Assembly (NCBI GenBank): GCA_009729775.1
Contig: GCA_009729775.1_4081.1
DNA: 64,000 nt
Strand: one strand, 5' to 3'
Source: Escherichia coli
GTDB lineage: Bacteria; Pseudomonadota; Gammaproteobacteria; Enterobacterales; Enterobacteriaceae
Shown here: piece by piece, positions 53,618 through 62,544 of the stretch
How positions within the stretch are numbered: position 1 is the first letter of the stretch
How the letters are laid out: every line of letters begins with the position of its first letter
Notes under the pieces: generated by a model
The model's input: only the letters and a program-made list of their open reading frames with translations
Told to the model about the DNA's origin: nothing
The model's database searches: none
Made by a program: the position numbers and the translations under genes

Positions 53618-53836
53618 TTATTTTGAATTATACAAGCAGTACAGGTATACCAATGGAGTAAAATGTTCGGAATCTATTATATATATTAACTGAGTAACAT
53701 ATATTCCATATAGATCTCGTGATTTATCTCTGTACATTAACAATGATTTATTTAAGTAAGGATCAACCCAGTACTTAATATCATTGTACTTCAACGTGTT
53801 GTTACGGTAACCTGATAGTTTTGAATTTTTATTCAA
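53618..53836 (-). CDS. hypothetical small protein
   Basis: 72 aa; 8-nt overlap with the upstream gene. Confidence 0.5.
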   Translation of the reverse strand: MNKNSKLSGYRNNTLKYNDIKYWVDPYLNKSLLMYRDKSRDLYGIYVTQLIYIIDSEHFTPLVYLYCLYNSK

Positions 53837-54206
53837 TTTTCTTACAATTACTCAGTAAGTGAATGATATCATCAGCAGTGAATGGTCCCAATACCAGAAC
53901 TTCTTCACCATTACCGAAAATGCTCAATGGCACTGATTGTTGACCAGCTAGATATTCAATTTGTTCCAGTTCGAAAATGTCATCAGCAGCATATACTACC
54001 TGCTCCATTTCATTATCTTTAATCCATGACTGCCAATGTTCTTTAAACTTCTTAGCTTCGTATTCTTGAACATAGTTAGGTGATTCAGGGTTGTATTGAT
54101 GTAACATAGTCATCCCAGCCATTACTAATTCTTTAGGGGATGGTGTAGAATCTTTCAGTACTACGATAGCTTGGATAGTTTTTACTTTAACGTCATTAGC
54201 AGCCAT
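53829..54206 (-). CDS. peptidyl-tRNA hydrolase PTH2-like protein
   Basis: N-terminal VKTIQAIVVLKDSTPSPKELVMAGMTMLHQY and C-terminal EEVLVLGPFTADDIIHLLSN resemble the Pth2 fold signature (VVVR.DL.M..GK.AAQ..HA / TVLA.GP...LID.VTGHLKL). Confidence 0.45.
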   Translation of the reverse strand: MAANDVKVKTIQAIVVLKDSTPSPKELVMAGMTMLHQYNPESPNYVQEYEAKKFKEHWQSWIKDNEMEQVVYAADDIFELEQIEYLAGQQSVPLSIFGNGEEVLVLGPFTADDIIHLLSNCKKIE

Positions 54207-54546: not shown

Positions 54547-55023
54547 TTATTTTAGAATGTATAAGTGTTTTTCTGCATTGACCAGACGGTGATCAATGAT
54601 TTCTTTGATAACGTTCCAGTTACCGCCGCCCAAATCGGCTCCAATTTTCGGGAAATGTACATGAACATCTCGATCAACTTTACAAAAATAATTTAGATGT
54701 TTGAACACATCGTCAATTGCATCATAACTGACATATTTAGCACCGTCATTACCGTACATTTTTTGGGTAATACAGTTTGCAATAATCAAATTATCGTTAA
54801 TTGCTGAATATGCAATTTGTCCAATTCTAAGAAATCCCATTTCCTTTTCATATGCTTTATAATCATCATATGCCATTGGATAACGATTTCTTAGTTCTTT
54901 TGCAAAACCTGAACCCATTTTACCCTGTGCGTTACAACCATGAGCAATTATATGTAATGCATTTTGATCATCGGTAACAGTACTGAACAATTCAAACAGA
55001 TTACCTCTGTGTTCATGTATCAT
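54547..55023 (-). CDS. macrodomain protein (TARG1/OARD1-like ADP-ribosyl hydrolase)
   Basis: ALHIIAHGCNAQGKMGSGFAKELRNRYP and FPKIGADLGGGNW match the TARG1-type motifs (AHCISEDCRMGAGIA ... PRIGCGLDRLQW). Confidence 0.75.
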   Translation of the reverse strand: MIHEHRGNLFELFSTVTDDQNALHIIAHGCNAQGKMGSGFAKELRNRYPMAYDDYKAYEKEMGFLRIGQIAYSAINDNLIIANCITQKMYGNDGAKYVSYDAIDDVFKHLNYFCKVDRDVHVHFPKIGADLGGGNWNVIKEIIDHRLVNAEKHLYILK

Positions 55024-55852: not shown

Positions 55853-56251
55853 TTATTTCCTTCTATTTCTTTGAAAAGCTTTAACAGCTTTAATAATACT
55901 GTTACACATTCGTTCAGTCAAATACTTTTGACATTCTCGTACATCAATGTACATGAACTTATCCAATTCTGGATGACTCTTACCATATCTATTAGTGTAA
56001 GTACTTTTACAAACTAATTCATCTGGTATTGGTTTGTCTTTGGCAGTATAAAAGAAAAGTACTAACCTTTTTCCCTTTCTATAGGATACATCACCAAGAA
56101 ACAGAAGATCATCTTCATCGATTTCGTATCCTGTCTCTTCGAAACATTCACGTACAGCAGCTTCTTTGAAAGTTTCATTACCCTCAGCTTTCCCTTTAGG
56201 TAAATCCCAATGATTCTGTCCGTGTTGTATGTCCGATAAGTATCTGACCAT
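55853..56251 (-). CDS. Nudix hydrolase
   Basis: Nudix box GKAEGNETFKEAAVRECFEETGYEI. ORF track begins with GTG 56254; ATG at 56251. An extended -10 (TGgTATAAT) lies ~12 nt upstream, suggesting a near-leaderless mRNA. Confidence 0.75.
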   Translation of the reverse strand: MVRYLSDIQHGQNHWDLPKGKAEGNETFKEAAVRECFEETGYEIDEDDLLFLGDVSYRKGKRLVLFFYTAKDKPIPDELVCKSTYTNRYGKSHPELDKFMYIDVRECQKYLTERMCNSIIKAVKAFQRNRRK

Positions 56252-56362
56252 CACGATAAAATATTATACCACAACTATAACGCATATCTTATCTCTTTGT
56301 CATCAATCGATGTTCAGATACTAATAATTATATCAGTTATTGGTTTTTTGTCCCACTATTTT

Positions 56363-57475
56363 TTAGAACATTTGTTTGATTGCTTCGTAACGAAGTTCAC
56401 AAACAAAATCACGAATTTCTGACGTTTCAAGTTCACCATCTTTGACCATTTGCTGAATATCAGGCAATTCAACATCAGTATAACGATCATAAACTTTAAT
56501 AATTAGATCTTCAAGTTCTAAATCAATTTCTTTTCGCAAAATGAAGTATTCCAAAACTTTATAAAGGAATTCTTCACCTCCGTTATTTTTAATATTCATA
56601 TCCAATAAAATATTACCCATTTCAATAGGGGTCTTTTTACGGAATGTTTTGATATCATCACGGAAACGTTTGATATAATTACTAAATTTAACATACTTAA
56701 CTGGAACTTTAATAGCACCGTTAAGTACTGAATCATTATTTACTTCTTCATTTTCAAGAAGAATAGACCACAGAAAATATGGTTTATATACATCCGTACA
56801 GTTCTCTGCAATATAATCAATAAGGTCTAAATTCTTTTTGGTCAAAGATGTATTAAACACCTTTTCGTAATAACCAAATTTACTTAGCGTCTTAAGGAAC
56901 TTTGCAGGCTTTTCTTCGGAAAATGCTTTTTCGAATTCCACAAAAACACGGTCAGGAACAAGATGATTTAGTTCACCACTATTGACCATTCCAATAGCGA
57001 GTTCCTCAGTGCTTTCATGGATAGTAAAGTCTGAATAACGAGTAGCAAATCGAGCAAGACGTAACACGCGTAATGGATCTTCTTTAAAATGGTCAGAAAC
57101 ATGACGTAGTATCTTGTTCTTGATATCAGCTTTACCACCGTATGGATCGATGTGAATTTGTAGTACTGGATCATACGCAATTGCATTAATTGTAAGGTCA
57201 CGGCGATACAAATCTTGTTCTAGTGTTACGCCTTTTGTATCCACTTCAAAGCCACCATATCCAGTACCAGTTTTACGCTCAGTACGGGCTAATGCGTGTT
57301 CATTACCTTCTGGACTTAGATATACTGGGAAATCCTTACCTACTTGCTTATAGCCAATACTTTGCAAGTACTTAAGATCAGATTCGGATGCACCAACAAT
57401 GACATAATCTTTGTCTTTTGCACGGATGCCCATTAAACGGTCACGGACGTAACCGCCAACCAAATACTTTTTCAT
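56363..57475 (-). CDS. cca: CCA-adding tRNA nucleotidyltransferase (class II head domain)
   Basis: MKKYLVGGYVRDRLMGIRAKDKDYVIVGAS parallels E. coli Cca MKIYLVGGAVRDALLG...DRDWVVVG; the RRDLTINA motif is present. At 370 aa it is shorter than E. coli Cca, so an HD domain is probably absent. Confidence 0.85.
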   Translation of the reverse strand: MKKYLVGGYVRDRLMGIRAKDKDYVIVGASESDLKYLQSIGYKQVGKDFPVYLSPEGNEHALARTERKTGTGYGGFEVDTKGVTLEQDLYRRDLTINAIAYDPVLQIHIDPYGGKADIKNKILRHVSDHFKEDPLRVLRLARFATRYSDFTIHESTEELAIGMVNSGELNHLVPDRVFVEFEKAFSEEKPAKFLKTLSKFGYYEKVFNTSLTKKNLDLIDYIAENCTDVYKPYFLWSILLENEEVNNDSVLNGAIKVPVKYVKFSNYIKRFRDDIKTFRKKTPIEMGNILLDMNIKNNGGEEFLYKVLEYFILRKEIDLELEDLIIKVYDRYTDVELPDIQQMVKDGELETSEIRDFVCELRYEAIKQMF

Positions 57476-59074: not shown

Positions 59075-59407
59075 TTACTCTTCGTTTTCTGTCAAATCAT
59101 CAAGAACTGGGTGTTCTGGATGGTTTCGGCGGTGTAATTTAATGCTTTTGTCTTTACTGAATACAGTTTCCATTTTTTCAAATGAATCACCAATTGCTTT
59201 GTATAAATCTGCTGCATCGGCAGTAACTGATTTACTACCTGATGTTAGAGTCACAGAGTATTGAGACTTATGCTCTTTCTTCACATGAACTTCAATATCC
59301 ATTACAGTTGAAGTACGGAACTTTTCAAGACATTTAGCACCATCGTAAATTGCATCTTGAATTGCTGTAGTAAAATCAACATTACCTTGAATATTTAATT
59401 TTAGCAT
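59075..59407 (-). CDS. hpf: ribosome hibernation promoting factor (HPF/RaiA/YfiA family)
   Basis: MLKLNIQGNVDFTTAIQDAIYDGAKCLEKF... aligns with E. coli HPF MQLNITGNNVEITEALREFVTAKFAKLEQYF and the C-terminal LYKAIGDSFEKMETVFSKDK with DMYAAIDGLIDKLARQLTKHK; AAGGTAGG SD. Confidence 0.75.
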   Translation of the reverse strand: MLKLNIQGNVDFTTAIQDAIYDGAKCLEKFRTSTVMDIEVHVKKEHKSQYSVTLTSGSKSVTADAADLYKAIGDSFEKMETVFSKDKSIKLHRRNHPEHPVLDDLTENEE

Positions 59408-60518: not shown

Positions 60519-60929
60519 TTAATCGTAGTAGGTTCTACCTACAGTTATGTGATATTTAAAGTACTTGGTTGGTAGTCCTAGTTCATTTCTAATATGTGTG
60601 ATGAAATCATCTTCAAATTCAATGATAAAGAATGAACCTGGATTCTTTTTATCTTTTACTATCTCAATACAAGGATTGAACTTTATCTTTACTTTCATTC
60701 CATCGTATTTTTTCCAGAACTCTTCATGTGGTGGTACTTCACCACGCACTATACTAACATGTGCTCCCCATTGAGGATCTTTAACGTCAATATGTAAATC
60801 AGTTCTGATGAAGTACTGGTAGTATCTAACCAACTGTAATGGAAGTTGCAGTACTAACCAGAAGTCCTTCTTCTTTTTCATAGTGCCACGGTCTGGATCA
60901 TACACCAGAGTTCCTTCCATTTCAATCAT
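60519..60929 (-). CDS. 2H phosphoesterase (LigT/Acb1-like cyclic phosphodiesterase fold)
   Basis: Two H-x-[ST]-x motifs about 70 aa apart (GAHVSIVRG and KYHITVGR), the hallmark of the 2H superfamily; 136 aa. Confidence 0.5.
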   Translation of the reverse strand: MIEMEGTLVYDPDRGTMKKKKDFWLVLQLPLQLVRYYQYFIRTDLHIDVKDPQWGAHVSIVRGEVPPHEEFWKKYDGMKVKIKFNPCIEIVKDKKNPGSFFIIEFEDDFITHIRNELGLPTKYFKYHITVGRTYYD

Positions 60930-62050: not shown

Positions 62051-62544
62051 GTTCTAACTCCTTTCAATAATACAATAGGAAAATACTGTGTATCTCTATC
62101 AGAAATACTATTACAGTACTCAATAATTTCTTGATGGAGTGTGTTTATATAAATGCTAGGATATGGAATTGGTGTTTGTATTAGTCCAGAACTATAAACA
62201 CAATCAGTTCTTTGACAATCAATATAGTGTGTTGTTGGTATACCTTTACCACGTTCCTCAACTACAATTGAGTACGTGTCAGCAATAAAGATGAACGCAT
62301 TGTTAATTGATACATATTGGAGGGAATACACATCATCATGAACTTCAATCAAAGGACCATCAAAATTCATCAATACCGAACGGCGATATCCTAACACATC
62401 ACTCATTGCATCGAACTGTTCTTGTGATGAAAGAAAACAAAAACACGTATCACGACATACGTCTATAAAACGCTTAAATGTTTCTGTTTCTATAAGCATA
62501 TAATTTTCCTTAAAAAAGACCCCACATAGTGAGGTCAAATACAT
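62047..62544 (-). CDS. hypothetical protein
   Basis: 165 aa ORF; stop abuts the upstream gene. Confidence 0.6.
   Translation of the reverse strand: MYLTSLCGVFFKENYMLIETETFKRFIDVCRDTCFCFLSSQEQFDAMSDVLGYRRSVLMNFDGPLIEVHDDVYSLQYVSINNAFIFIADTYSIVVEERGKGIPTTHYIDCQRTDCVYSSGLIQTPIPYPSIYINTLHQEIIEYCNSISDRDTQYFPIVLLKGVRT

Follow-up and report, generated by a model that had tools for sequence, protein, structure and literature searches.

The window, which is the whole 64,000-nucleotide stretch of DNA that was analysed, matches Escherichia phage 121Q (348.5 kb; a jumbo phage in the genus Asteriusvirus) at 99% identity. An open reading frame on its minus strand (60519..60929), with an ATG start codon and a Shine-Dalgarno-like AGGT 6 nt upstream of it, encodes a protein of 136 amino acids that is 100% identical to 121Q gp531 (YP_009102118), which is annotated there as a hypothetical protein and belongs to a PHROG group (12204) that carries no function label. 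By sequence identity and family profile, the gene is assigned here to the 2H phosphoesterases (Pfam 2H-SAK family). The proximal motif of the protein, H57-V-S59-I-V-R62-G63 (60741..60761, minus strand), contains the predicted general-acid histidine and an arginine at position +5, and the distal motif, H127-I-T129-V-G131-R132 (60534..60551, minus strand), contains the predicted general-base histidine and a predicted phosphate-clamping arginine. The initial annotation of this 136-residue open reading frame, which noted the motifs HVSIV and HITVG at the spacing of 2H enzymes, was accurate: HVSIV spans residues 57-61 (nt 60747-60761) and HITVG spans residues 127-131 (nt 60537-60551), and 70 residues separate the two histidines.

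Read along the minus strand, gp531 is preceded in 121Q by small open reading frames without known function and is followed by a LysM lysozyme and a homolog of the HPF/RaiA-type ribosome hibernation factors (gp533; 59075..59407, minus strand; PF02482, 4.2e-9). The latter belongs to a conserved downstream block and is regarded as a context gene; its position does not imply joint work with the 2H enzyme. Further downstream are five open reading frames without known function (gp534-gp538), a class II CCA-adding tRNA nucleotidyltransferase of 370 amino acids (gp539; 56363..57475, minus strand), a NudE-type Nudix hydrolase identified by RefSeq annotation and its open reading frame (gp540; 55853..56254, minus strand), a glutaredoxin, a Macro (Appr-1''-p processing) domain protein identified by RefSeq annotation and a weak Pfam Macro match (gp544; 54547..55023, minus strand; E 0.018), and then neck and tail genes. 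Adjoining the Macro gene, gp546 (53829-54206, minus strand; 125 aa) has a weak match to the CARF domain of Csx1 (E 0.023, below threshold) that is probably noise; if real, it would mean that a phage encodes a fold that binds cyclic oligoadenylates. The 25 promoter-like sites are about as many as chance predicts (25.8). Terminator-like sites number four in the scanned stretch versus 1.5 +/- 1.3 in shuffled sequences, and among the features seen is a terminator-like hairpin between gp525 and gp526 (62518-62536, minus strand) with an 8-bp stem of which five pairs are G-C, followed by TTTTTT.

The CCA-adding enzyme gp539 consists of the PolyA_pol head and RNA-binding domain only: it is without an HD domain or even an 'HD' dipeptide, and solved CCA enzymes align with it over residues 2-211 only. 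The CCA enzymes of Serratia phage BF and of contigs L015 and L022 likewise have neither an HD domain nor an 'HD' dipeptide. The HD domain of the E. coli host's CCA enzyme acts as a 2',3'-cyclic phosphodiesterase and as a phosphatase. Gp539 is a candidate downstream partner of the 2H enzyme. Elsewhere, 121Q encodes an Rnl1-like RNA ligase (gp438, about 50 kb from the 2H gene) and a Pnkp-type polynucleotide kinase (gp443), and there are nine tRNAs in the stretch examined for them (72-78 kb). Two annotations of 121Q proteins can be refined: the 'nucleotidyltransferase' gp506 (L001:27249-28481, minus strand) belongs to the RlaP RNA-repair Pol-beta family (PF10127, 6e-16), and the 'hydrolase' gp458 (L013:9638-10057) is a PTH2-type peptidyl-tRNA hydrolase (2e-5). 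A cluster of Sir2, Nudt16-like Nudix, cREC, membrane protein and PIN/PhoH genes (gp476-480; L013:20175-23604, record positions 220175-223604) matches the sirtuin-centred RNA-repair neighbourhood of a published analysis (PMC9503650); location of the 2H gene inside this cluster was considered and rejected, the cluster being present in 121Q without it. No homolog of HAD_SAK, DUF2828/TROVE, NADAR, PRTase_3, OB-fold ligase or YqeY was detectable in the 121Q genome, and the linkage of 2H to RNA repair is weaker in 121Q than in its relatives.

A pair of motifs of this kind is by itself not above chance in the 121Q genome, where nine stop-to-stop open reading frames of 90-400 aa contain a pair of H-x-[ST]-hydrophobic motifs separated by 45-130 aa; the 2H feature of gp531 is counted as real because of its conservation and its fold. 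Two small hypothetical proteins of 121Q with 2H-like motif spacing, gp150 (L010:31194-31613; HRSV...HVSI) and gp282 (L011:43365-43688; HVSV...HCTV), match no Pfam family, and their motif pairs could be due to chance or to very divergent 2H-like proteins. Whole-genome HMM and motif scans of 121Q found no second 2H gene besides gp531. In an alignment of 74 homologs that are 26-51% identical to gp531, no column other than H57 and H127 is invariant, and conservation reaches at least 90% at G6, Y10, P12, W24, G63, W72, R114, G118 and T129. Within the proximal motif, H57 is found in 74/74, serine or threonine at residue 59 in 74/74 (54 S, 20 T), arginine or lysine at residue 62 in 61/74 (58 R, 3 K) and G63 in 69/74; within the distal motif, H127 and T/S129 are each found in 74/74, G131 in 66/74 and arginine or lysine at residue 132 in 55/74 (37 R, 18 K). 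R114, which is located in helix 2, is kept in 71/74.

The only match in a Pfam scan of gp531 is to PF22547 (2H-SAK), at 26.0 bits versus a cutoff of 27 bits and over the C-terminal half (residues 87-136) only. The 2H-SAK domain is the 2H domain of 'Swiss Army Knife' RNA-repair proteins, reportedly defined through comparative genomics by Burroughs and Aravind in 2016. The PF22547 profile matches 20/20 close aligned homologs of gp531 (E<0.01; best 3.9e-10); P0001, which is 97% identical to gp531, has a precomputed PF22547.3 call, as do most homologs, and the UniRef name of the ortholog in Yersinia phage fHe-Yen9-04 agrees with 2H-SAK. RNA-repair syntax of the SAK type is present in relatives: HAD_SAK_2 adjoins 2H in L022, and an RNA ligase and a HAD gene are upstream of it in L015. 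In contrast to such systems, gp531 is stand-alone and 121Q has no detectable HAD_SAK partner. With its own score just under the cutoff and its homologs matching the profile, gp531 is placed in the computationally described PF22547 2H-SAK family. A profile search of 1.84 billion representatives found 1,169 clusters (50% identity) at E<=1e-3, with 578 reaching E<=1e-10. Almost all are stand-alone proteins 130-170 aa in length, known from big phages and from metagenomes, and both motifs are kept in 147 of the 149 best cluster representatives, the two exceptions being fragments. By tblastn, homologs are present in 77 phage records; all of the records listed are jumbo phages (about 310-600 kb), including the 121Q and RaK2 groups, the GAP32/BF/CBB group, Vibrio phage 2.275.O, Atu_ph07, Bacillus phage G and RsoM2USA. 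A pattern-limited scan of 185,579 cellular genomes found no cellular relatives, NCBIfam has no match for gp531 or distant family members, and the searchable literature has no mention of 2H-SAK or PF22547, nor was experimental or biochemical work on the family found there.

The predicted structure of gp531 has the two lobes of a 2H fold, and its HxT motifs each lie on a central beta-strand, the proximal motif on strand 57-62 and the distal motif on strand 126-132. Structure prediction had been named at the outset as a check on the assignment, and the contrary outcome named with it, absence of a 2H fold, was not seen; together with the invariance of H57 and H127, the fold sustains the description of gp531 as a small 2H phosphoesterase. 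From its modelled fold and the conservation of its catalytic residues, gp531 is predicted to be a catalytically competent 2H enzyme of minimal size (136 aa). Comparison of the model with solved structures gave scores of 7.0 for Acb1 of phage FBB1, 6.7 for coronavirus ns2, 6.1 for Usb1, 5.9 for PH0099 LigT, 5.8 for penguinpox cGAMP phosphodiesterase, 5.7 for drCPDase and 5.5 for CNPase. A Foldseek search of the PDB instead placed Usb1 and LigT on top, with no match at E<=1e-3 and with Acb1 absent from the top 50, and neither phmmer nor either family profile found a 2H chain in the PDB by sequence. The 2H fold is established, yet no solved subfamily is clearly closest, because the structure rankings differ in placing Acb1 or Usb1/LigT first. 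Usb1 (the U6 snRNA 3'-end phosphodiesterase) and the coronavirus ns2/AKAP7-type 2',5'-oligoadenylate phosphodiesterases are eukaryotic or eukaryotic-virus enzymes that share 9-16% identity and no profile match with gp531.

The initial annotation described gp531 as resembling LigT/Acb1-type phosphodiesterases, and its placement in the 2H superfamily is upheld by conservation and fold, but membership in the Acb1 family is not. The Pfam model of Acb1 (PF23474), which matches T4 57B at 2.7e-60, has no match to gp531 at E<=10. Alignment of the gp531 family with T4 Acb1 or an Acb1 alignment by hhalign gave probabilities of 0.5%, 17% and 24%, all out of register, with each run pairing the C-terminal lobe of the gp531 family with the N-terminal lobe of Acb1; this pairing is interpreted as reflecting the internal duplication that all of the 2H superfamily shares. 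A broad HMM made from 32 Acb1 sequences scored at most 12.9 bits on the 74 members of the gp531 family, the HMM of that family in turn scored at most 8.7 bits on Acb1 sequences, and gp531 was not among the best six 121Q matches listed for the broad Acb1 HMM. The Acb1 signature HxTIxYSR ... PHITLSY, with an aromatic residue at +5 in both motifs, is absent from the gp531 family: the +5 residue of Acb1 is Y/F in the proximal motif (32/32) and Y in the distal motif (31/32), whereas that of the gp531 family is predominantly basic in both. The conserved blocks and gene context also differ between gp531 and Acb1, the anti-CBASS 2H nuclease of phages T4 and FBB1, and no family-level sequence relationship connects them. 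Thus the Pfam model, three hhalign runs, two locally built HMMs and the motif comparison all reject gp531 as an Acb1, and by these sequence measures it is not a member of the Acb1 anti-CBASS family. Whole-genome HMM and motif scans detected no Acb1 in 121Q, where gp57 was considered and rejected as a 28-residue chance match, and a scan of IMG/VR for Acb1 yielded no Rak2-like contig among the 80 of 263 matches listed.

Comparison with ThpR/LigT, the other family named in the initial annotation, gives a mixed picture: Foldseek ranks Usb1 and LigT first and the distal motif has the form HxTxxR, but there is no match of gp531 to LigT-type Pfam models at E<=10 or to LigT-type PDB sequences. The extended motifs of E. 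coli ThpR are HxTxxF48 and HxTxxR130, and its Arg130 is a phosphate clamp that is essential for RNA CPDase activity and confined to the ThpR/LigT RNA-cyclic-phosphodiesterase branch (PMC4201822). The distal arginine is common to ThpR and gp531 (R132), but the proximal +5 residue is arginine in gp531 versus the base-stacking Phe48 of ThpR, and gp531 is ~40 residues shorter than ThpR/LigT and archaeal PH0099-type RNA 2',3'-cyclic phosphodiesterases. The gp531 family is characterized by a partial match to ThpR combined with a family-specific "double-Arg" signature, as read from the alignment, and this signature may bear on the choice of substrate. The roles of H57 and H127 as general acid and general base are predicted by likeness to ThpR, in which His43 corresponds to H57 (PMC4201822). 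CPDases of the Cpd1/plant type, which act on ADP-ribose 1'',2''-cyclic phosphate (Appr>p), have tyrosine at the +5 position of the distal motif (PMC4201822), and gp531, with arginine at this position (arginine or lysine in its family) and no Pfam CPDase match, is not among them.

The genes that surround 2H in relatives of 121Q recur in a recognizable order. Upstream of it, GAP32/BF-type phages and L015 have an RNA ligase with an OB fold (confirmed in BF), a HAD gene (L015), a PRTase_3 gene (L015), a DUF2828/DUF7788 gene and one other gene; downstream of it, one other gene is followed by lysozyme, HPF, CCA, Nudix, glutaredoxin and YqeY genes and then by PTH2 (L015) or Macro (BF). The protein that combines DUF2828 and DUF7788, between the OB-fold RNA ligase and 2H, is about 510-530 aa long; the PRTase_3 protein precedes the DUF2828 protein in L015 (the loci concerned are L015:5269-6081, L015:6222-7814 and L002:5987-7513), and at the equivalent place RsoM2USA has a TROVE/Ro60 gene, which is directly upstream of 2H. 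The order 2H-lysozyme-HPF-CCA is kept in the Rak2-like phages and is seen in Serratia phage BF and contig L015, and the same gene order is reported for Vibrio phage 2.275.O, in which HPF and CCA, separated by one gene, are about 3 kb downstream of 2H (L003:9362-9745). BF, L015, L022 and the Vibrio phage all have a CCA gene in the neighbourhood of 2H, and a Nudix gene occupies the same position in BF and L015. In L022, whose 2H protein has 26% identity, the order is PTH2-2H-HAD_SAK_2-CCA, with the 2H and HAD genes overlapping by 4 nt. In L020, NADAR is 7 nt downstream of 2H and an RNA ligase is upstream, as it is in L023; SIR2 is 2 kb upstream in L026, NAMPT is nearby in L025, and an HD-domain protein is encoded directly upstream of 2H in L047. 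DnaB helicase and sulfotransferase genes are the neighbours of 2H in a clade of ~40% identity (L046, L048, L050), and no informative neighbours were found in L019 or L024.

P0034 (L018:952-1959, metagenome contig JACYYJ010138311.1), a protein of 335 aa in which 2H is joined to a C-terminal YqeY/GatB-like domain (PF09424, 4e-17), is the one fusion with another domain that proved informative among the family members found. YqeY is a tRNA-binding domain of the GatB type. Separate YqeY genes are within 0.4-4.5 kb of 2H in four lineages (BF/L015, L021, L025 and Atu_ph07). Phage YqeY genes are rare (34/50,697 records), and about 20 of the 34 records also carry the 2H family, a genus-count estimate that is not accession-matched and an overlap that is inflated by shared ancestry and genome size. 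Macro genes are within 3-6 kb of 2H in four lineages as well (121Q, BF, Bacillus phage G and Atu_ph07). A census of 121 neighbours includes microbial PARG and also unrelated families. In about 14 sampled 2H contexts there is no gene for cyclic-oligonucleotide signalling, and tRNA/RNA-repair genes recur. Several of the contexts share ancestry, and because jumbo phages are rich in RNA-repair and NAD/ADP-ribose genes, chance alone should place some of these genes within +/-6 kb of 2H.

The explanation that best accommodates this gene context, to which we would assign about an even chance, is that gp531 acts on damaged tRNA or other RNA, opening its 2',3'-cyclic phosphate ends for a phage repair pathway. 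The pathway would begin with host metal-independent nucleases, for example those that cut the anticodon or acceptor stem, which leave a 2',3'-cyclic phosphate; gp531 would open it by metal-independent 2H catalysis, in which H57 may act as general acid and H127 as general base while the phosphate is clamped by R132 and probably also by R62 and R114. The resulting phosphomonoester may be cleared by a phosphatase (HAD_SAK in relatives, the Pnkp-type gp443 in 121Q) or by NAD-dependent removal through the Sir2, cREC, Macro and Nudix genes, and the end would then go either to the phage RNA ligase (gp438) for sealing or to the HD-less CCA enzyme (gp539) for rebuilding. YqeY, which some relatives have fused to 2H or encoded nearby, may direct the enzyme to its substrate there. 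The T4-like polynucleotide kinase/phosphatase of 121Q could heal cyclic ends by itself, as T4 Pnkp does, so the need for a 2H enzyme in 121Q is questionable. A role in tRNA repair, in keeping with the cca gene nearby, was the alternative offered in the initial annotation; the CCA gene is confirmed and is near 2H in relatives too, but the linkage in 121Q itself is the weaker one noted above. Comparative genomics already predicts an RNA-repair or NAD-linked cyclic-phosphate role for the 2H domains of jumbo phages (PMC7824862, PMC9503650).

A rival explanation is that gp531 blunts abortive-infection defence as a functional analogue of Acb1 from outside the Acb1 family, degrading an immune signal such as the cyclic di- or trinucleotides of CBASS, the cyclic oligoadenylates of type III CRISPR, the cyclic NMPs of Pycsar, or 2'3'-c-di-AMP or a similar messenger. 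A 2025 preprint by Doherty et al. lists 75 phage 2H enzymes, which it shows to be very diverse, with no entry from the 121Q/Rak2 group, and reports that many divergent lineages cleave immune messengers with distinct specificities; the same preprint describes two structural groups of phage 2H enzymes that were inactive on all 18 messengers. Since Acb1 is not detectable in 121Q, the niche would be open there. Against an immune-signal substrate are the two inactive structural groups, the presence in Yersinia phage fHe-Yen9-04 (by BFVD/UniProt naming only) of an Acb1 of 148 aa in addition to the 2H-SAK homolog, the failure of gp531 in every Acb1 sequence test, the arginine at both +5 positions in place of tyrosine, the Foldseek ranking, and the recurrence of tRNA/RNA-repair genes rather than cyclic-oligonucleotide genes around 2H, all of which make this explanation unlikely.

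That the main activity of gp531 is instead phosphodiesterase action on Appr>p is improbable, even with the ADP-ribose-processing genes that recur near 2H: Macro in the four lineages listed above, NADAR in L020, SIR2 in L026, NAMPT in L025, PARG in the census, and the NudE and Macro genes downstream of gp531 in the window. The substrate would be the by-product of NAD-dependent removal of RNA 2'-phosphates, or a related ADP-ribose signal, and the product would pass to a Macro/NADAR phosphatase and then to a Nudix hydrolase; 2H CPDases of yeast and plants act on this compound, and such a pathway has been proposed for phages (PMC9503650). Macro domains are found in over half of jumbo phages (PMC9503650), so the proximity of Macro is weak evidence. 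The distal +5 tyrosine of Cpd1/plant-type CPDases is replaced by Arg/Lys in the gp531 family, the YqeY fusion and the linkages to HAD_SAK, CCA, TROVE and RNA ligase point to a macromolecular tRNA substrate, and the cREC domain beside Sir2 in 121Q is already predicted to do the same job. As a secondary activity of gp531, action on ADP-ribose 1'',2''-cyclic phosphate is plausible. A role in the nucleotide pool (on free 2',3'-cyclic NMPs and short RNA degradation products) or as a non-catalytic RNA-binding protein is very improbable: many 2H enzymes do hydrolyse 2',3'-cNMPs in vitro, and gp531 is among nucleotide-metabolism genes in 121Q (Nudix, glutaredoxin, dNMP kinase), but both histidines are strictly invariant, and the tRNA-binding YqeY fusion and RNA-repair neighbours favour a polymer substrate.

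A more specific form of the RNA-end-healing explanation, which we consider doubtful when taken together with its immune counterpart, is that the stand-alone double-Arg 2H clade is the core of a dedicated system for rescue of tRNA 3' ends, or else destroys an immune messenger outside current panels. In the former case, the cyclic phosphate would be opened by 2H, the end cleared by a phosphatase of the HAD or another type, the tRNA targeted by YqeY and the end rebuilt by an HD-less CCA enzyme, countering toxins of the host or of competitors that cut tRNA acceptor stems; in the latter case, the messenger might be, for example, a cyclic phosphate signal derived from ADP-ribose. Either would be a counter-defence activity distinct from that of Acb1.

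The Pfam model for this family and the prediction of an RNA-repair or NAD-linked role for jumbo-phage 2H domains were already known; what is added here is the clean separation from Acb1, the double-Arg signature and the recurrent linkage to YqeY. The separation from Acb1 guards against a tempting mis-annotation of these proteins as anti-CBASS factors. The linkage to YqeY, HAD_SAK, CCA and RNA ligase genes leads to a testable hypothesis about the substrate, in which jumbo phages would use the 2H enzyme in the upkeep of tRNA under nuclease attack; if the substrate should prove to be an immune messenger, gp531 and its relatives would constitute a new specificity class among viral 2H phosphodiesterases.
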